DNA of 64,000 bases from Gammaproteobacteria bacterium (GCA_965243395.1 CBDEUS010000002.1:978293-1042292); one strand, 5' to 3'; numbered from the stretch's first letter, positions 11,303 through 24,477 are shown. The notes: generated from the sequence alone by a model not told the origin. Made by a program: numbers and translations.

Positions 11303-12957
11303 GATTTTGACTCTCCTGCTTTATTGGTAGCGAGGCTGACATCTGCAGGAAATTCTATTCTGAAGCAGCTGCCACCATCAGGCATACTAATATAACGTAA
11401 ATCTCCACCATTATTTTTGCATAATTCCCTTGAAAGGTATAAACCGAGGCCTGTACCAGTATCACTGGTAGTAAAAAATGGTTCAAATAATTGTTTTTGA
11501 TGTTCAATATCTATCCCCGGTCCATTATCAATCACATCTAAATAAGGAGCAGAGTGACCTTGGCTAGTATCGACTATTAGCTGAAGGCGAAAATTTTCTT
11601 TGCTAGAACCATATTTCTTAGCATTTTTGCAGAGGTTCCATAACACTTGGTGTAAGTTATTTGGATCCATCATAGTAAATGCATCGGAAGGTGTAATTTT
11701 TAATGAAACCCAATCTTTTTGTAGCTCATTAGTACGGGTGAATTCTTCAATAAATTTTCGCAACCATAAGCCTAAGTTTATTTTTTCTGGCTTAGGTTTT
11801 TCGCGCCGTGATAAACGCAAAACATTGTTGATAATTGTGTTCAAACGAATAGATTGGTCTTGAATTATTGTAGCGAGTCTTTTATCTGCTTTATGCAGCT
11901 CCGAAGATTCGTCTAACAACTGTGCAGCATGACTGATAGCACCTAGTGGGTTTCTAATTTCATGTGCAATACTTGCTGTGAGTCTACCTAAGGATGCTAA
12001 TTTCGTTTCTTGAACTTGTTTGTCGACTTCAGTGTTGTCATTAAGATAAATTACAGACCCTCTGTCATGTTTACGTAAACCCACGGGTACAATTCGTATC
12101 TGAAGATCTGCTTTGTTAGTACGTCTTAATTTTCCCAGATAGTTTCTGAATTCTGTATTTTCTGTTGATGCTTTATTCCATGATTTATATAAATCAAATA
12201 AAGGTACAGATACGTCTAAAAGTTTAGAATTATCATTTATATCTGGTTGATCCAATAATTTCCACGCCGCATGGTTATGCATTCGAATTGTGCCGGTATC
12301 ATCAATCACCATAATTCCGGCATCCATTCGATTAATTAAATGCTCATTGAGTTTTCCCAAATTGGCTAAGTCAATCCCACGTTGTGCAGCAAGTTTGGCG
12401 CTTTCGCTAGCGCGATGCGCTAAAGTAATTGCTAATAATGCAGTGGCGAATAGAGCGGCACCAAGAAGACCTGCCTGAGTGTAAGCCGTTTTTTCAAATA
12501 GACCATGTAAGTTTGCATAAATTTCATGGCCGAGAATTGCTAGAGTGGCTAGAGCAGCGAATAGCAATGCAGACTTGCCCGGCAAAAGTAAACTTCCGCC
12601 AGCTACAACAGCGATAATTAAGGTACCAAAACCACTGGTCACGCCACCATACAAATTCATTAAAGCGATGATCGCTATAATATCTACAGTGATTGAGATA
12701 TAAACTTGTGATTTGTATGGCAACCATCTGAAGTATGCAACAATAAGCGCAAGTATTGCGGTAAGAAAATAAATACCACTTACCCACCGTAGTAAATGTG
12801 GGTCAAGAGAAGAGAGGAATCTTGTACTGTCAATAAAAAGACTAAGACTAAAAAATATTATGGCAACAATAATTCGATATACTGAAAATAGCCTAAGTGC
12901 AGGCCACTGTTGCGTGGTTTTATCTTCTTGTGTATTGCTCATAGCAGTATTAAGCAA
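11299..12957 (-). CDS. pilS: Sensor histidine kinase PilS.
   Basis: 552 aa with six N-terminal transmembrane helices, the HisKA motif SIAHEIRNPL and an HATPase_c domain (DNGPGI...GTGLGL). Confidence 0.85.
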   Translation of the reverse strand: MLNTAMSNTQEDKTTQQWPALRLFSVYRIIVAIIFFSLSLFIDSTRFLSSLDPHLLRWVSGIYFLTAILALIVAYFRWLPYKSQVYISITVDIIAIIALMNLYGGVTSGFGTLIIAVVAGGSLLLPGKSALLFAALATLAILGHEIYANLHGLFEKTAYTQAGLLGAALFATALLAITLAHRASESAKLAAQRGIDLANLGKLNEHLINRMDAGIMVIDDTGTIRMHNHAAWKLLDQPDINDNSKLLDVSVPLFDLYKSWNKASTENTEFRNYLGKLRRTNKADLQIRIVPVGLRKHDRGSVIYLNDNTEVDKQVQETKLASLGRLTASIAHEIRNPLGAISHAAQLLDESSELHKADKRLATIIQDQSIRLNTIINNVLRLSRREKPKPEKINLGLWLRKFIEEFTRTNELQKDWVSLKITPSDAFTMMDPNNLHQVLWNLCKNAKKYGSSKENFRLQLIVDTSQGHSAPYLDVIDNGPGIDIEHQKQLFEPFFTTSDTGTGLGLYLSRELCKNNGGDLRYISMPDGGSCFRIEFPADVSLATNKAGESKS

Positions 12958-17767: not shown

Positions 17768-18718
17768 ATGTCAGATAGAGAAATAATAATAGGTGTGATA
17801 CCTGATGAATATAAAGGTTTACGCTTAGACCACGCATTGGCGAAAATGTATCCAGACTATTCGCGAGCACGCCTGCAAAAATGGATAAAATCAGGCGCAA
17901 TCACGGTTGATGGAAACATGCTGCGTCCTAAAGACGATATTGGGGGTGGAGAGAGAGTAGAAATAGAAATAATTCCAGAAGATGAAGTATTTCTAAAACC
18001 TGAAGCCATACCTTTAAATATTAACCATGAGGATGACCAAATAATTGTGGTAAATAAACCTTCAGGTTTAGTTGTACATCCGGGTGCGGGAAATTCAAGT
18101 GGTACCCTGGCGAATGCTTTATTACACCATTTCCCAGATATACGAATGGTGCCGAGAGTAGGTATTGTGCACAGGCTCGATAAAGATACTACAGGGTTAT
18201 TAGTAATTGCTAAAAACATTAAAACGCAGACAAATTTGGTTGAACAATTACAACAAAGAATAGTTTCTCGAAATTATATTGCACTTGTACATGGCGAAAT
18301 TATTTCCGGTGGAACAATTGAAAATCCGATAGGAAGGCACTCAGTTGACCGTAAAAAAATGGCGGTGAAGCCCACCGGTGGAAGAGATGCGATCACACAT
18401 TATCGAATTCGCAAAAAATTTACAGGCTTTACTTTATTAGATGTTAGTTTAGAAACTGGGAGAACACATCAAATACGTGTGCATATGTCTTATCAAAAGC
18501 ATCCTATTGTTGGAGATAAAGTGTATGGTCGAAAAATTAATCCTGGTAAAAAAGCTGTACTTACATTACTTGCGAAATTTCCACGCCAAGCCTTACATGC
18601 AGCTGAGTTGTCATTCAAGCATCCGAAAACTAATCAACAAGTTTCATTTAAAGCGCCCATTCCTAATGACTTTCATGCGTTGATCGATGCGCTCGAAAAA
18701 GCAGATCATGAAGCTTGA
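17768..18718 (+). CDS. rluD: 23S rRNA pseudouridine synthase D.
   Basis: S4 domain plus the RluA-family catalytic motif HRLDKDTTGLL. Confidence 0.9.
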   Translation: MSDREIIIGVIPDEYKGLRLDHALAKMYPDYSRARLQKWIKSGAITVDGNMLRPKDDIGGGERVEIEIIPEDEVFLKPEAIPLNINHEDDQIIVVNKPSGLVVHPGAGNSSGTLANALLHHFPDIRMVPRVGIVHRLDKDTTGLLVIAKNIKTQTNLVEQLQQRIVSRNYIALVHGEIISGGTIENPIGRHSVDRKKMAVKPTGGRDAITHYRIRKKFTGFTLLDVSLETGRTHQIRVHMSYQKHPIVGDKVYGRKINPGKKAVLTLLAKFPRQALHAAELSFKHPKTNQQVSFKAPIPNDFHALIDALEKADHEA

Positions 18719-19445
18719 ATATATTAAACCCGATTGGGCTGCGCCGGAAAATATTTCCTGTGTGACTACAACTCGTGTGGGTGGATATAGTAATAATGAA
18801 TATTCATCTTTGAATTTAGGCGGGCATGTTAAAGATGCTATTAATAATGTTGAGCAAAATCGAAATTTAATATTAAAAGATCTTAAACTTCCCAGCAGCC
18901 CTGTTTGGTTAGAGCAGGTACATGGTTCAATTGTATTGGAATTAAATGATAGAACATCTGAAAATACTGTTGCGGATGCAGCTTATACTCAACAAAAAGG
19001 AATCGTTTGTGCTGTGCTCACCGCAGATTGTTTACCAATCGTATTTTGTGATCACAAAGGTCAATATGTTGCCGTTGCTCATGGAGGTTGGCGGGGATTA
19101 GTTGGAGGCATTATCGAAAACACTTTACAAGCATTGCCTGTTGCTAATGAAGAAATGATGTGTTGGTTAGGTCCTGCCATCGGTCCGAATAAATTTGAAG
19201 TAGGCAAAGAAGTCTTTGAACAATTTCTAGAAAAAGATGTTATTAATGAAAATGCGTTTCAAACACAAGAAAATGGAAAATATTTAGCTAATATTTATCA
19301 ATTAGCCAAAAACATTCTTGCTAAAGAAAGTGTGGCGCAAGTGTATGGTGGTCAGTATTGCACCCATACTGAAAGCGATAAGTTTTATTCCTACCGAAGA
19401 GATGGTGAAGCAGGGAGAATGGCAACACTCATCTGGCGTGATTAG
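18687..19445 (+). CDS. pgeF: Purine nucleoside phosphorylase / polyphenol oxidase-family protein YfiH (PgeF).
   Basis: DUF152 motifs TADCLPIV and HGGWRG. The rluD-yfiH order is conserved. Confidence 0.85.
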   Translation: MRSKKQIMKLEYIKPDWAAPENISCVTTTRVGGYSNNEYSSLNLGGHVKDAINNVEQNRNLILKDLKLPSSPVWLEQVHGSIVLELNDRTSENTVADAAYTQQKGIVCAVLTADCLPIVFCDHKGQYVAVAHGGWRGLVGGIIENTLQALPVANEEMMCWLGPAIGPNKFEVGKEVFEQFLEKDVINENAFQTQENGKYLANIYQLAKNILAKESVAQVYGGQYCTHTESDKFYSYRRDGEAGRMATLIWRD

Positions 19446-19522
19446 TGAGCACTTGGATGTGCGAATAAGAGTTGCAACAGGGATGTTGCTTCAGTTTCAA
19501 AGTTAACTAATCTCGATTATTT

Positions 19523-19549
19523 CTGCTTACGGCCAATAGCGGACATTAT
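19523..19549 (-). repeat. Copy 1 of a local imperfect-palindromic repeat family (consensus about AATGTCCGCTWTTGGSYCGTWAG).
   Basis: On the minus strand it reads ATAATGTCCGCTATTGGCCGTAAGCAG. It overlaps the stop of ORF 19546-19854. Confidence 0.6.
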
Positions 19550-19854
19550 TTTAAATCATCATGTTCAAATTCGTCGCGATAGGTATTAGGTTTGCGATAC
19601 TTGCTAAATATAATGCTATTGAAAGGCCATGGAATAAACTTTCTAGGAATAGCATTTGGTGAATGCTGATTAACAAGATATAAGACAATAGATGCGCCAA
19701 TAAACGGCACAAGCCAGCAAATTACCATTTGTGCATTTCTTTGGAAAGGTTCTAGTGTTTCATCATATTTTGCTGCAACACTTCCAATAAATGCAAGCCA
19801 GAGCCAAAATAAGAAAAGCACAATAACGAAAAGTAGTGATATAAATTCAAACAT
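19546..19854 (-). CDS. Hypothetical small inner-membrane protein (two transmembrane helices).
   Basis: 102 aa, hydrophobic (FISLLFVIVLFLFWLWLAFIG and WLVPFIGASIVLYLV). An AGGAGA ribosome-binding site is provided by the upstream repeat copy. Confidence 0.5.
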   Translation of the reverse strand: MFEFISLLFVIVLFLFWLWLAFIGSVAAKYDETLEPFQRNAQMVICWLVPFIGASIVLYLVNQHSPNAIPRKFIPWPFNSIIFSKYRKPNTYRDEFEHDDLK

Positions 19855-19870
19855 ATTTGTATTTATGTCT

Positions 19871-19895
19871 CCTAACGGCCAATAGCGGACATTAT
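19871..19895 (-). repeat. Copy 2 of the repeat family.
   Basis: On the minus strand it reads ATAATGTCCGCTATTGGCCGTTAGGAG. It overlaps the stop of ORF 19892-20518 and supplies the ribosome-binding site of the next ORF. Confidence 0.6.
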
Positions 19896-20518
19896 GGAGC
19901 TGAGCATCCTAGAGCTAATCTAAGTGTTGATTCATCTTTTGCTTTTGAGTCTTTTGGATAAAACAAGCTTAAACATGCATATGATTCCATTATTTTTTCA
20001 GAAAATTTCTTAATATCTTGACCATGTATATGAAGCAATTTTCCAGCTTTAATGTAATAGGCATTTTCATGAACAAATGTATCCTCAGGTTTTACAGTTC
20101 TCCTAACAAATACATATCTGATTCCGTTCTCAAGGATCTTATCTTCAATTACTTCAGAATGAATATCTTCATTTGTTGTTAAAACTTTTTTAAACGCCTC
20201 ATCCCCTGGATACATCCCTATCCTTATTTCTGGTCGTAAAGATAGATTATATGGTTCATCAAGTGCATGATATAGCCTCAATCCATTTATATTGAGCTGC
20301 CCAATGTATCGATTAGATATAGAAATGTACCCGTCTAATGCCTGATAGATTACTTTATTAGCTATTTGCTCATCCGTAACACCTTTAGAAATGATTAATC
20401 TATCTGGTAATGATTTCCCAATAAGAAAACCATTCGCAAAACTAAGAACTGAGATAATTAATACCGAAATTAATAAAAGCAATATAGTCACAGGATTAAA
20501 CTTGGAGGTTATATACAT
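19892..20518 (-). CDS. Hypothetical protein with an N-terminal signal-anchor and a periplasmic domain.
   Basis: 208 aa. There is one N-terminal transmembrane helix (TILLLLISVLIISVLSF) and no recognisable catalytic motif. Confidence 0.5.
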   Translation of the reverse strand: MYITSKFNPVTILLLLISVLIISVLSFANGFLIGKSLPDRLIISKGVTDEQIANKVIYQALDGYISISNRYIGQLNINGLRLYHALDEPYNLSLRPEIRIGMYPGDEAFKKVLTTNEDIHSEVIEDKILENGIRYVFVRRTVKPEDTFVHENAYYIKAGKLLHIHGQDIKKFSEKIMESYACLSLFYPKDSKAKDESTLRLALGCSAP

Positions 20519-20562
20519 TTTATCTTGTAGGCTTCATTTCATATCTTATGCAATATATCTGC

Positions 20563-20578
20563 CTTGAGTCGTAAGCAG
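20563..20578 (+). repeat. Degenerate partial copy of the repeat family (CTTGAGTCGTAAGCAG).
   Basis: It matches the TTGGCCGTAAGCAG half of copy 1. Confidence 0.35.
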
Positions 20579-20581
20579 TCA

Positions 20582-20857
20582 TCAGCTAAATATGGAACTA
20601 AATATTTCACCTATGGTTTCAAACACACCTGCTACACCCTCGAAAATTGCTTCTAGAAAACTGACTAAGCACTCAAGAATGCTTTCACTACTGCTGACTA
20701 CTGGTACTGATATGCCGCTTAATGCAGCTAATATAATTATTGAAGGAATCAGAGTGACATCTGCGATAAAAATATATATAACAGAACCTATTAATGTGAA
20801 TGCACAAATTGTATTTAACAACCTAACGAGAATTGACTTTTGTCTTCTGTTTTTCAT
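20582..20857 (-). CDS. Hypothetical small membrane protein.
   Basis: About 91 aa starting from the ATG at 20857 (MKNRRQKS...). The track ORF begins at an upstream TTG. It has one or two transmembrane helices. Confidence 0.4.
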   Translation of the reverse strand: MKNRRQKSILVRLLNTICAFTLIGSVIYIFIADVTLIPSIIILAALSGISVPVVSSSESILECLVSFLEAIFEGVAGVFETIGEIFSSIFS

Positions 20858-20883
20858 ATATCTTTCTCTGCTCAAAACTATTT

Positions 20884-20914
20884 AAATGTCCGCTTTGGGT
20901 CGTTAGCTGTCATT
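20884..20914 (+). repeat. Copy 3 of the repeat family, in the opposite orientation to copies 1 and 2.
   Basis: AAATGTCCGCTTTGGGTCGTTAGCTGTCATT. It is an imperfect hairpin and overlaps the stop of ORF 20910-21194. Confidence 0.6.
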
Positions 20915-21194
20915 CAGATGTTAACCCACATTTTTGGCATTTTCTTGGCCACCAACTGTAGTAGCTAATAATCTTTTTACAGGATGGACATTTAGAATAT
21001 CTAATCGCAACAAAGAGCGAAACAAGCCCAACTACTTGTAGAATAATTATTAGTATTGAAGGATTTACAGGAAGGTTTACTAACTCATGTTGATAATGTC
21101 TAACAATAATAGCAGGAATCCAAAAGCACAATGCTATTAAAGTAAAAAGGATTCGCTTGAATCGGTGCTCTTTAAATAACAGTTGATTATTCAT
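20910..21194 (-). CDS. Hypothetical membrane protein with a C-terminal zinc-ribbon.
   Basis: 94 aa with two transmembrane helices and the C-terminal CPSCKK...CQKCG motif (CxxC-x13-CxxC). Confidence 0.45.
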   Translation of the reverse strand: MNNQLLFKEHRFKRILFTLIALCFWIPAIIVRHYQHELVNLPVNPSILIIILQVVGLVSLFVAIRYSKCPSCKKIISYYSWWPRKCQKCGLTSE

Positions 21195-21221
21195 ACTGGG
21201 TGAAGTATTTCAGACTTAATT

Positions 21222-21253
21222 GAATGTCCGCTTTGGGTCGTAAACGGACATTC
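21222..21253. repeat. Copy 4 of the repeat family, a perfect 9-bp-stem hairpin.
   Basis: GAATGTCCG-CTTTGGGTCGTAAA-CGGACATTC. Confidence 0.6.
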
Positions 21254-21380
21254 TAATTAAGAATAGAATCGGTTGCATCGTCCCTGATGGACATCATATT
21301 CGCGCTTCCCTGCGCTCACATCCCAGCGCTTACTACATATTCTGTGCTCTTGGCCGATGAATAGAATATATTAATTCACT

Positions 21381-21416
21381 TCTCAGGCCTTGAAATAGCT
21401 AGGGTTGCCCCCATCT
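21381..21416 (+). promoter_or_regulatory. Sigma-32 (RpoH) heat-shock promoter of clpB.
   Basis: TCTCaggCCTTGAAA, then 13 nt, then CCCCATCT. This is a near-consensus match to TCTCNCCCTTGAA-N13-15-CCCCATNT. It lies 35 bp upstream of the clpB ATG. Confidence 0.8.
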
Positions 21417-21450
21417 CAAAGACAAAGTTTATGAATATGGAGTTGTCAGG

Positions 21451-24030
21451 ATGCGCATGGATAAATTAACCACTAATTTCCAGCTTGCTTTGCAAGAGGC
21501 GCAGTCTATGGCAGTCGGGCAGGATCACCAATTCATTGAGCCTGTTCATTTATTGTTGGCAATGCTGAATCAAGACAACAGTGTGGTGGCATCTCTTTAT
21601 TTAAGTGCGGGTGCAGATGTAAATGCAATAAAACAGAAATCACAGGAAATAGTAAATCGTTTGCCTCATGTTTCCGGTACTGCCGGTGAAGTGCATATAT
21701 CGAATAACCTTAGTAATCTATTAAATGTAACCGACAAACTTGCACAACAAAGTGGTGACGATTATATCGCTTCCGAAATGTTTGCGGTTGCAGCGATTGA
21801 AGACAAGGGTGAGCTTGGAAGTTTATTAAAACAGTCAGGTTTAAATAAGCAGCAATTAATATCTGCGCTTGAAAAAATGCGAGCAGGAGAAAGCGTGAAC
21901 GATCCTAATGCAGAAGAAACACGACATGCGCTTGATAAATACACGATTGATTTAACCGAGCGAGCAGAACAGGGCAAGCTTGATCCAGTTATTGGTCGTG
22001 ATGATGAAATTCGCCGTGCGGTTCAAGTTTTACAACGTCGTACTAAAAATAATCCAGTACTAATTGGTGAGCCAGGTGTGGGTAAAACGGCCATTGTAGA
22101 AGGTTTGGCTCTGCGCATCGTGAATGGTGAAGTTCCTGAAGGGATTAAAAACAAAAAACTATTATCACTTGATTTAAGTGCACTCATTGCGGGGGCAAAA
22201 TTTCGTGGTGAATTTGAAGAAAGACTTAAAGCAGTATTGAAAGAACTTTCTAAGCAGGAAGGGCAGATCATATTATTTATTGATGAGTTACACACCATGG
22301 TAGGCGCAGGCAAAGCTGAAGGGGCTATGGACGCAGGCAATATGTTGAAACCAGCATTAGCACGAGGGGAGTTACATTGTTTGGGTGCAACTACTTTAGA
22401 TGAATATCGACAGTATATTGAAAAAGACGCTGCGCTTGAGCGACGTTTCCAAAAAATAATTGTTGATGAACCCAGTGTTGAAGACACCATCGCAATTTTG
22501 CGTGGTTTAAAAGAACGTTATGAAGTGCATCATGGTGTAGATATCACCGATCCGGCGATTGTCAGTGCGGCCACACTCTCTCATCGTTACATTTCAGATC
22601 GACAGTTGCCGGATAAAGCTATTGACTTGATTGATGAGGCTGCTTCACGCATTCGTATGGAAATCGATTCCAAACCGGAATCAATGGATAAACTGGATCG
22701 TAAACTTATTCAACTAAAAATTGAGCGTGAGGCATTAAAGAAAGAATCTGATGATGCATCCAAGAAACATTTGGATGAACTTGAAGCCGAAATTCAAAAG
22801 CTTGAAAAAGAATATGCAGATCTAGAAGAAATTTGGCGCGCAGAAAAAAATACCTTGCAAGGTTCGCAGGAAGTGAAAGAAGCGCTTGAGCAAGCGCGCA
22901 TAGACTTAGATGCTGCACATCGTGCAGGAGATCTAGCCAAGATGTCGGAATTGCAATATGGAAAGATTCCTGAATTAGAAAAGCAATTACAGTCAGCCAG
23001 CGAAGTAAAGAGTGGTGATAATAAATTACTTCGAAATAAAGTTACGGATGCGGAAGTGGCTGAAATTGTTTCGCATTGGACAGGTATTCCAGTATCTAAG
23101 ATGTTGGCGGGTGAGCGTGAAAAATTATTGGAGATGGAATCTGTACTTCGTAAGCGAGTCGTTGGTCAAGATGAAGCGGTGCAAGTCGTTTCAGATGCGG
23201 TGCGCAGATCCCGTGCAGGTATATCTGATCCCAGGCGGCCCAATGGTTCTTTCTTATTTCTTGGGCCAACAGGTGTAGGTAAAACAGAACTGACCAAAGC
23301 TTTAACCGAATTTTTATTTGATAGTGAAGATGCGCTTATTCGTGTAGATATGTCTGAGTTTATGGAAAAACATTCGGTAGCACGTTTAATAGGTGCGCCT
23401 CCGGGTTATGTGGGTTATGAAGAGGGTGGATATTTAACTGAAGCGGTAAGACGTAAGCCGTATAGTGTTGTATTACTGGATGAAATTGAAAAAGCACACC
23501 CGGATGTTTTTAATATTTTATTACAAGTCTTAGATGATGGTCGCCTAACAGATGGTCATGGTAGAACAGTTGATTTTAAAAATACTGTCGTCATCATGAC
23601 GTCTAATTTAGGGAGTGATGTCATACAAGAGCTTTCATCGGATGCGCAGTATGAAGAAATGAAAGCAGCCGTTATGGAAGTGGTTGCAGCACGTTTCAGG
23701 CCCGAATTTATTAATCGCATTGATGATGCGATTGTGTTTCATCCGCTTGCACAAGAGCATATACGTGCCATTACTGAAATCCAGTTAGAGCACTTGCAAA
23801 AGAGACTTAGTGATCGTGATATCAGATTGTCATTTTCAGATATAGCTTTAGAAAAATTATCTAAAGCTGGATTTGATCCAGTCTATGGTGCAAGACCCCT
23901 AAAGCGTTCAATACAAGAACTCGTCGAGAACCCATTAGCCCAAAAGTTGTTATCAGGTGATATAAAAACGGGCGCAGAGGTGAGCGTTGATGTAAAAAGT
24001 GATCAATTAGAATTTGTTTCGAAATCTTAG
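21451..24030 (+). CDS. clpB: Chaperone disaggregase ClpB.
   Basis: 859 aa. [14 protein letters not shown] is like E. coli MRLDRLT. There are two AAA+ modules with a coiled-coil M domain. Confidence 0.95.
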
Positions 24031-24084: not shown

Positions 24085-24477
24085 TTAGTGTCTTCGGTTA
24101 AAACGTTGACCTTTGCGATCAAGCCGACGATCAATGCGATCTCCTTTTCGATCTAATCGATTATCAATGCGATCACCTTTTCGGTCTAATCGATTATCAA
24201 TGCGGTCTCCTTTTCTTTCTAGACGATTCGCCAAATGATCTTTACCAGCATCGCGTGCGCGGTCAGCTTTATGATCCAAGCGGTTTTCAATACGATCACC
24301 TTTGCGGTCAAGCCTTCGGTCGACGCGATCACCCTTGCGGTCTAAACGGTTTTCGATACGATCACCTTTGCGATCTAAATGTCGTTCAACCCTATCGCCT
24401 TTGTCCGCACTTGCTATAGAAGTACCGCCAAGCAATAACACAGCCGAGAAAAGTAGTGCTAAGTTTTTCGTTTTCAT
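24085..24477 (-). CDS. Secreted low-complexity protein composed of tandem 11-residue charged repeats (DRKGDRIxNRL).
   Basis: Signal peptide MKTKNLALLFSAVLLLGGTSIASA, then about 8-9 repeats of LDRKGDR[IV][ED][NR]R. There is no hydrophobic core. Confidence 0.6.
   Translation of the reverse strand: MKTKNLALLFSAVLLLGGTSIASADKGDRVERHLDRKGDRIENRLDRKGDRVDRRLDRKGDRIENRLDHKADRARDAGKDHLANRLERKGDRIDNRLDRKGDRIDNRLDRKGDRIDRRLDRKGQRFNRRH
24100..24400 (-). repeat. Intragenic tandem 33-bp coding repeats.
   Basis: The minus strand repeats units like cgatcaagccgacgatcaatgcgatctcc / cgatctaatcgattatcaatgcgatcacc. This corresponds to the 11-aa protein repeat. Confidence 0.6.

Follow-up and report, generated by a model that had tools for sequence, protein, structure and literature searches.

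The 64,000-nt stretch of Gammaproteobacteria bacterium DNA analyzed here (GCA_965243395.1, CBDEUS010000002.1:978293-1042292; hereafter, the window) carries an insert of ~1.9 kb between pgeF (18687 to 19445, plus strand), whose product matches the NCBIfam PgeF/YfiH models, and clpB (21451 to 24030, plus strand). The insert holds four small open reading frames (ORFs) on the minus strand, and copies of a 30-nt imperfect palindrome, the T site, mark its junctions. The whole is bracketed by an inverted repeat of 54 nt (19445 to 19498 and 21266 to 21319; 70% complementary), which the initial annotation of this DNA had missed and which we named E54. From E54 to E54 the island measures 1881 nt (19441 to 21321), and it is a member of an apparently undescribed, cross-phylum family of site-bounded gene cassettes that sit on E54-delimited platforms. 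The features of the island are as follows.

19441 to 19501, plus strand: left copy of E54, which starts at the pgeF stop codon (TAG/TGAGC) and has two short hairpins with GGA loops
19518 to 19547, plus strand: T2 site, copy A, TATTTCTGCTTACGGCCAATAGCGGACATT; its outer arm holds the ORF1 stop codon, TAA
19546 to 19854, minus strand: ORF1, 102 aa, with two hydrophobic segments
19864 to 19893, plus strand: T2 site, copy B, TATGTCTCCTAACGGCCAATAGCGGACATT; the ORF2 stop codon and the AGGAG upstream of ORF1 lie in it
19892 to 20518, minus strand: ORF2, 208 aa, with an N-terminal membrane anchor
20555 to 20584, plus strand: degenerate T1 site, TATATCTGCCTTGAGTCGTAAGCAGTCATC (nhmmer E = 0.027); the TGA that ends ORF3 lies in it
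20582 to 20857, minus strand: ORF3, 91 aa from an ATG, hydrophobic (97 aa if started from the TTG at 20875)
20885 to 20914, plus strand: T1 site, copy C, AATGTCCGCTTTGGGTCGTTAGCTGTCATT; the TGA that ends ORF4 lies in it
20910 to 21194, minus strand: ORF4, 94 aa, with two transmembrane segments and a C-terminal CPxC...CxxC zinc ribbon
21223 to 21252, plus strand: T1 site, copy D, the sole copy with near-perfect arms; its hairpin spans 21215 to 21262
21261 to 21321, minus strand: right copy of E54, inverted, ~130 nt upstream of the clpB start and ~70 nt upstream of a sigma-32-like promoter

The four small minus-strand ORFs agree with their earlier description in strand and length, in a hydropathy scan (two, one, two to three, and two hydrophobic segments for ORF1 to ORF4, respectively), and in the ribbon of ORF4, whose C terminus carries CPSC...CQKC. 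Neighboring cassettes in the island are mutually unrelated. No match to Pfam, NCBIfam, or PADLOC was found for any of the four products, and the exact ORF3 sequence was absent from the protein collection. Sigma-70-like matches in the island numbered 3, against 9 expected.

A 22-mer, AATGTCCGCTWTKGGYCGTWAG, occurs four times in the window at zero to one mismatch (19526 to 19547 and 19872 to 19893 on the minus strand; 20885 to 20906 and 21223 to 21244 on the plus strand), compared with 0.01 occurrences expected; the 23-mer consensus given initially is one base too long and matches one copy only. This count, together with the nhmmer match to the degenerate copy, bears out the earlier statement that a repeat stands at every junction, in four good copies and one degenerate copy, and a profile search found no further T copy in the remaining 62 kb of the window. 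The repeats do occur in two orientations, as had been noted, but these are really two subtypes, T1 and T2, that had escaped notice; on the plus strand, they read T2, T2, T1 (degenerate), T1, T1. The family consensus is a 30-nt imperfect palindrome, AATGTCCGCTTTGGGTCGTTAGCGGTCATT for T1 and TATGTCTGCTTTCGGCCAATAGCGGACATT for T2, with T2 being essentially an inverted T1 with a different center. Both subtypes have inverted arms of 10 to 11 bp in common (AATGTCCGCT/AGCGGACATT) and differ in an asymmetric center of 7 to 10 bp (TTGGGTCGTT in one versus the equivalent ATTGGCCGAA in the other).

The stop codons of all four ORFs fall inside a repeat, either as TAA within ATAATG or as TGA within AATGAC, so the overlap proposed by the initial annotation is real. 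Its companion proposal, that the repeats serve as ribosome-binding sites, is correct for ORF1, where the AGGAG in copy B ends ~14 nt from the ATG, and fails for the other ORFs. In a check for attC-like folding, copy D formed a strong hairpin (DNA fold z = -8), in keeping with its near-perfect arms and with the single hairpin described earlier, but for copies A, B, and C, neither strand folded better than shuffled sequences. At 21333 to 21366 is what may be a sixth, decayed T-like site (..TTGGCCGA..), below significance in the profile search and just upstream of the sigma-32-like promoter of clpB (CTTGAAA at 21389 to 21395 and CCCCATCT at 21409 to 21416).

Syntenic contigs in other genomes were found through PgeF homologues (loci and contigs in other genomes that we compared with the window bear labels from L001 to L137); a scan of JGI metagenomes with PgeF returned only a 28% relative. 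In three relatives (L121, L136, and L137), pgeF is followed directly by clpB, with no T site and no intact E54, which upholds the initial claim of a 2-kb insertion between yfiH (pgeF) and clpB. Two other relatives hold E54-bracketed cargo that differs from that of the window. L119 (8738 to 12357) carries two signaling genes (HD-GYP and GGDEF/EAL) and, beyond them, an E54-bracketed island of 578 nt that has a single broken ORF. L135 (6738 to 11704) carries a 5-kb E54-bracketed island in which T sites separate a 125-aa ORF, a FadL-type porin with ArsR, a Na+/H+ exchanger, and a 115-aa ORF. Identity to the window over NadE, RluD, and PgeF is ~80% for L121, 90% for L119, and 77% for L135. The pgeF-clpB gap is a hotspot in this lineage, with three empty relatives and three different cargoes in the window, L119, and L135.

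The ends of the platform stay in place while its interior turns over. In the window, L119, and L135, E54 or a remnant of it begins at the pgeF stop codon, and L121 (8690 to 8904), which is empty, retains a decayed E54 right after pgeF. An unrooted neighbor-joining tree of the three flanking proteins placed the empty L121 as close to the window as the occupied L135, so that, given the pattern of occupancy, either precise loss or repeated targeted gain is needed.

Members of the E54 family are 54 to 60 nt long, and nhmmer found two copies only in the 64 kb (E = 6e-19 for the left and 1e-16 for the right). Each has two short hairpins with an invariant GGA in the loops (CAnGGAnG), and among 20 copies from 13 loci, compensatory changes occur at 6 of 9 base pairs. 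The second hairpin of the left copy scores as terminator-like on the plus strand. The GGA-loop hairpins also match what we take to be the consensus of CsrA/RsmA-type binding hairpins; if transcribed, the left E54 would lie in the 3' untranslated region of pgeF and the right E54 in the leader of the cassette transcript. The layout E54(+)-T2-genes-T1-E54(-) recurs at seven loci (the window, L108, L062, L093, L087, L119, and L135), with T2 beside the (+) copy and T1 beside the (-) copy in all seven and with cargo ORFs mostly on the minus strand. E54 is also found at the ends of long arrays, and further copies lie in L117, L101, L072, L056, and other loci.

E54 and the adjacent T site together form a block of ~100 nt that is 75 to 88% identical between genomes, and convergent E54 pairs bracket 0.6 to 5 kb of cargo at unrelated loci in several genomes. 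Conserved ends of this kind could mean that the whole island is a mobile insertion cassette, a nonautonomous transposon that travels in one piece with its passenger genes and has terminal inverted repeats of ~100 nt (E54 plus T) that are acted on by an insertion sequence (IS) transposase encoded elsewhere. Such an element would be compatible with T-site recombination inside it, and the tree mentioned above, with the empty L121 as close to the window as L135, would fit independent gains at the same site as well as precise loss. However, no target-site duplication was evident on inspection of the seven islands (none at the junctions of the window, L108, L093, L119, or L135, with L062 being ambiguous), and no IS with E54-like ends was present in the plasmid collection or in the loci. 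The decayed E54 that follows pgeF in L121, and the same remnant accompanied by a second island in L119, favor an old resident platform with inner turnover over repeated insertion of a whole element, and we consider the mobile insertion cassette unlikely.

Several E54 islands abut cut T sites, namely, in L062 (840 to 870), L119 (11628 to 11651), L093 (7010 to 7020 and 7878 to 7900), and L135 (~11520 to 11545). The pattern of truncation is that the left T2 is cut after ..AATAG and the right T1 is without its left arm. It looks as if an E54 island had been inserted into the center of an existing T site, with no obvious duplication.

The initial annotation had left it open whether the repeat was confined to this locus. 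It is not: the T site belongs to a dispersed family found in many genomes, yet one that differs from an ordinary, lineage-specific repetitive extragenic palindrome (REP). A 19-mer scan of one genome per species in GTDB (596 Gb) matched more than 116 stretches. A locus was assigned to the family when the next 11 nt fit at 8 or more of 11 positions (0.8% by chance), and among the matches listed, at least 92 loci extend to the T family. By our own estimate, a few tens of chance matches to the 19-mer are expected in 596 Gb; 11 of the listed matches fail to extend, among them all three in Firmicutes, which were judged to be chance. Uncultured Gammaproteobacteria with many copies include OZ252002.1 (at least 13 8-kb blocks with T sites), OZ241890.1, CBDCTA01 (five blocks, with up to 23 sites in one block), and a Thiotrichales bin. 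T-bearing isolates belong to Dyella, Lysobacter, Noviluteimonas, and Pseudomonas, and T-bearing bins were assigned to Alphaproteobacteria, Betaproteobacteria, Nitrospinaceae (Nitrospinota; contigs of 228 and 492 kb), Nitrospirota, Gemmatimonadales (Gemmatimonadota), Phycisphaerales (Planctomycetota), and Caldithrix.

Across these phyla, the outer arm and center of the T site (22 to 23 nt) are nearly invariant, and in a Dyella genome of 67% GC, the site stays at ~47% GC. The inner arm is variable without compensation, with pairs 5-26 and 7-24 mismatched in 40 to 60% of copies, and a perfect stem is present in 23 of 177 T1 copies and 9 of 108 T2 copies. Such uncompensated variation, together with the copies that do not fold, means that the T site is conserved as a sequence and not as a fold. 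This pattern points to recognition by a protein that reads the sequence rather than a hairpin.

In many genomes, the usual junction is not a single site but a full unit, in which a T1 and a T2 site flank a linker of 43 or 53 nt; the window itself has no such doublet. Among 38 full units from other genomes, lengths of 103 or 113 nt are typical (56 to 113 nt overall), and the start-to-start spacing is mostly 73 or 83 nt. The full unit folds as one long hairpin (z = -3.3). An inner stem based on covariation between the T1 and T2 inner arms within a unit was considered and rejected, being inconsistent in the five units checked by eye. At L113, at least 11 units in a single orientation occupy 8 kb, and each interval holds one small ORF. 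These ORFs are mutually unrelated, are mostly of no known function (several appear membrane-like by eye), and end at or in the unit; the cargo includes an M23 peptidase and a Rieske fragment. Single-site junctions in the same style as those of the window are found in Dyella japonica DSM 16301 (L009), where at least five small ORFs between 1768 and 4300 are each followed by one T1-type site. A tRNA-Phe gene downstream of mutY-yggX immediately precedes this array, which has no integrase within 8 kb. Dyella japonica is a culturable T-bearing host. Over all loci, the stop codon lies inside the site for 42 of 217 site-adjacent ORFs.

Rfam holds no family that matches the island, the full T1-linker-T2 units, or E54, and neither the full unit nor E54 plus T2 had a match among 72,556 plasmids and 50,697 phages. 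The T site is not a phage feature, since only nine contigs in IMG/VR carry the 19-mer. The T-site sequence was not found among 8 million papers searched by literal sequence, and a keyword search returned work on CRISPR only.

Two cassettes turn up again in other arrays, with their limits exactly at the sites. ORF2 has one homologue among 5.8 billion protein clusters, P0003, with 75% identity; the dN/dS ratio of the pair is 0.21, consistent with purifying selection, and ORF2 is therefore a real gene. Its AlphaFold model, built on a two-sequence alignment, is of low confidence (pLDDT of 57). P0003 is located in L117 and has site types around it like those around ORF2; it is preceded by a linker and the reverse complement of T1. 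A T2-type site lies over its stop codon, followed directly by E54 and then by a different gene from that in the window. The window exceeds L117 by exactly one unit, ORF1 plus T2, which is flanked by duplicate T2 sites. ORF1 has no homologue among the 5.8 billion clusters and is for this reason not certainly a real gene. The other such cassette, which encodes a CBS-domain protein, is present in both L001 and L007; the two copies have 83% identity over the stretch that begins where the upstream site stops and finishes with the cassette's own site, but they have different neighbors and different types of upstream site.

ORF4 belongs to a family of 21 homologous clusters of ~93 aa with invariant CPxC...CxxC cysteines. 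Of three homologues looked up, two are in canonical integron cassettes (L131 and L132, with R'' boxes ACCTAAC/TCCTAAC and R' boxes GTTATAT/GTTAGGA), and no attC or T site accompanies the third. The gene pool of T cassettes thus overlaps that of integrons. L131 (1 to 1108) has GGCGTTA at both ends, as an amplicon primed in attC would; L132 covers 1 to 811. The proposal that the units behave as cassettes is therefore well founded: each consists of one ORF and a 3' site, units recur with boundaries at the sites, their content turns over among relatives, and the ORF4 family occurs in integrons. Nor are the ORFs conserved core genes of related taxa, the other possibility that had been raised, as ORF1 is without a homologue, ORF2 has its single relative, and the ORFs are absent from the syntenic relatives.

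The main rival explanation is that the T sites and E54 are nonautonomous repeats, either REPs and their inverted doublets (REPINs) or miniature inverted-repeat transposable elements (MITEs), with a REP-associated tyrosine transposase (RAYT)/HUH or IS transposase encoded elsewhere. Repeats of this kind would gather in permissive intergenic or fast-evolving accessory regions, and the appearance of cassettes would result from insertion between small genes, to which the repeats supply stop codons; if they had a role, it would be exerted on RNA, in ending or stabilizing transcripts. The full unit, with two inverted 30-nt imperfect palindromes around a 43- to 53-nt linker, indeed has the shape of a REPIN or a bacterial interspersed mosaic element (BIME) (PMC3116915, PMC3337134), and it folds as one long hairpin. 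Many copies are solitary among housekeeping genes with no enzyme alongside, and RAYTs are typically single-copy genes (PMC5581495). The E54 islands that lie inside truncated T sites (L062, L119, L093, and L135) suggest repeats inserting into repeats, and the E54 hairpin is terminator-like.

Other observations are harder to reconcile with this explanation. REPIN-RAYT systems are lineage specific and mostly vertically inherited (bioRxiv 10.1101/2022.05.22.493013), whereas the same 30-mer is found here across classes and phyla; a REP-like element common to several phyla would be unusual in its own right. The 62 kb around the island hold no other T copy, most T copies do not fold, and the sites lack a GTAG head. 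In shared cassettes, homology takes in the ORF and breaks off precisely at the sites, and the duplicate T2 sites around ORF1 are unexplained by repeat insertion. No RAYT-like ORF was detected in the examined sequence, although the approximate E. coli RAYT query made this a weak test (one spurious hit). On balance, we regard a REPIN- or MITE-type origin as doubtful, but as an alternative to be taken seriously.

The initial annotation had likened the array to an integron or to a cluster of attC sites that has no integron-integrase (CALIN). Its cassette behavior stands, but membership in that family does not, given the 30-bp sites, the lack of attC architecture, the nonfolding copies, and the lack of an IntI-like gene in the window. 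On the CALIN reading, the repeats would be attC sites, and an IntI encoded elsewhere would recombine them in folded, single-stranded form. In its favor, CALINs are common and mostly without a nearby intI (PMC4889954). The units are promoterless, co-oriented, and of one ORF, each ORF has a site at its 3' end, and the ORF4 homologues are true integron cassettes. In addition, T1 (CGCTTTG-GGTC-GTTAGCG) resembles the right-hand simple site of the attC in L132 (CTGTTTG-AGGC-GTTAGGA), a likeness that may reflect distant kinship.

However, attC sites usually range from 57 to 141 bp in length, compared with 30 bp for T sites. Our own structural scan, which looked for an AAC box and a GTT box with L-box pairing, detected both complete canonical attCs used as controls (L131, 294 to 370; L132, 442 to 489). 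It found no junction sites in the island, where its sole match (20495 to 20622) was below the shuffle rate of 2.1. The scan matched just 1 of the 38 full units and nothing in the Dyella array, and the counts for L113, L009, and L135 were at or below the shuffle rate. The full unit has its GTT-type box before its AAC-type box, inside out with respect to attC. The arms of T sites are of equal length and without extrahelical bases, their mismatches are uncompensated, and folding was absent in three of the four copies in the window. A tblastn search with an approximate IntI1 query sequence found no IntI-like ORF in the 64-kb window. Taken together, these results make a canonical integron array without its integrase very unlikely.

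An orphan immunity-gene array of a polymorphic-toxin system had also been suggested. The small membrane or secreted products without known domains would suit such an array, and some ORFs of the Dyella array appear immunity-like by eye. Against this, no toxin, Rhs, CdiA, or type VI secretion system gene occurs within 9 kb on either side, and the database searches that returned no Pfam, NCBIfam, or PADLOC match gave the suggestion no support. The cargo of related islands (a FadL-type porin, ArsR, a Na+/H+ exchanger, a CBS protein, an M23 peptidase, and a Rieske fragment) is likewise not what this explanation would predict, and we find it highly improbable.

We propose that the cassettes are exchanged at double-strand, core-type recombination sites by a recombinase encoded elsewhere, an account to which we give about even weight for and against. 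Each cassette consists of one ORF with a short leader before it and a 30-bp T site at its 3' end, and the two inverted E54 copies delimit the platform. Recombination between like T sites in direct repeat would excise a circle made of a gene and its site, and the reverse reaction would bring this circle into any array that offers a like site. Given their different centers, T1 and T2 would not react with each other, and this difference would account for the presence of T2 at one end of each island and T1 at the other. What the sequences establish is the anatomy of the island, the near-constant outer arm and center of the site in different phyla, cassette limits at the sites, changing cargo at one locus, and a platform design repeated at seven loci; we infer a recombinase, its circular intermediate, recognition of sites in double-stranded form, and the incompatibility of T1 and T2.

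Several findings weigh against this proposal. A single T site lies between ordinary housekeeping genes at 38 of the 116 loci, a REP-like distribution, and the full unit has, as noted, inverted 30-nt ends and a long hairpin in the manner of a MITE or REPIN. The T-site count for the source genome covers the 64-kb window only. Clear sharing of cassettes amounts to two pairs among the 217 site-adjacent ORFs, and no circular junction or polymorphic excision was observed. When all ORFs of at least 150 aa from the 116 loci (~0.9 Mb of flanks) were clustered, no gene family was found to recur next to T sites and no recombinase was found. The top neighbor families were ABC ATPases, peptidases, aminotransferases, and TPR proteins, i.e., ordinary housekeeping neighbors, and P4-type integrases occurred at 3 of the 116 loci. 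A tblastn search of these loci with the approximate IntI1 query returned only an xerD-dsbC locus and one lone integrase (L104).

In L104 (6144 to 6907), a T1 site abuts the stop codon of this lone tyrosine-recombinase gene, which encodes a Phage_integrase domain; as a single instance, the adjacency may be coincidental. Beside the gene is a UvrD-helicase/PD-(D/E)XK/IrrE protein also present in L016, L072, and L092.

Integrons are the sole system for accumulating and rearranging single promoterless genes that is well understood, and their cassettes are a major unexplored environmental gene pool. It is possible, though on present evidence somewhat doubtful, that T sites and E54 constitute a second integron-like capture system, widespread in environmental bacteria, one that exchanges single genes across phyla on E54-delimited platforms through two incompatible subtypes of double-strand core site, draws on the integron gene pool, and depends on a recombinase encoded elsewhere. 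If so, a substantial share of cassette-borne accessory genes would be invisible to attC-based tools such as IntegronFinder, and a widely distributed site-specific recombinase or transposase would still be to be found. A short, nearly invariant 30-bp site in two apparently noninteracting versions would also make an attractive genetic tool.

Two other features of the window lie outside the island. A type IV pilin gene (9179 to 9628, minus strand) is followed, in the stretch from 749 to 9628, by a low-GC (28 to 35%) cluster of genes for glycosyltransferases, asparagine synthase, and a polysaccharide-synthesis epimerase/dehydratase, and this stretch looks like a pilin-glycosylation or surface-polysaccharide island. 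Downstream of clpB, at 24085 to 24477 (minus strand), is a gene for a 130-aa secreted protein with ~11 tandem DRKGDRIENRL-like units and without a Pfam family; an ORF of 130 to 142 aa occupies the same position after clpB in L119, L121, and L137.

Among known systems, REP, BIME, and REPIN elements are similar to the T family in being ~30-nt imperfect palindromes that are extragenic and form inverted doublets with a spacer, with an enzyme, if there is one, that acts in trans from a single copy (PMC3116915, PMC5581495). Unlike these elements, the T family is cross-phylum and is clustered with small accessory ORFs, with zero copies in 62 kb of core. Mobile insertion cassettes and MITEs have long terminal inverted repeats around passenger genes and no transposase inside, as the E54 islands do, but the islands differ from them in having no target duplication or cognate IS, a modular interior, and cargo that varies at one locus.

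The pdif modules of Acinetobacter plasmids comprise one or a few genes between inverse sites of ~28 to 30 bp and are shuffled between replicons, with XerC/XerD encoded elsewhere (PMC6449649, PMC13141974). Similarly, T2 and T1 in inverse orientation bound the cargo in all seven E54 islands. T sites differ in their layout (~10-10-10 or 11-8-11 rather than 11-6-11), in being chromosomal (no match in the 72,556 plasmids), in their spread across phyla, and in forming direct-repeat arrays as well (Dyella). By eye, the T site has no likeness to what we take to be the gammaproteobacterial dif consensus.

In Neisseria, the short palindromic dRS3 sites of intergenic mosaic elements (NIMEs) bound mosaic units, and in the "minimal mobile elements" of this genus, one gap between two conserved genes holds different cassettes in different strains. 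The T sites share with them a palindromic site made of arms and a variable core and a gap between conserved genes that holds differing cassettes. The dRS3 units are genus specific and mostly noncoding, and their exchange is ascribed to transformation with homologous recombination in the genes on either side.

T sites differ from attC in being conserved in sequence and not only in structure, in their 30-bp length without an R''/R' AAC...GTT pair, and in their two subtypes, and the platform is bounded by inverted E54 copies rather than by intI-attI. Both integron arrays and T arrays consist of promoterless single-gene units whose stop codons lie at or in the 3' site, which make up a very large content of mostly small unknown proteins, and which can stand apart from an adjacent integrase, and the ORF4 cassette family is common to the two.

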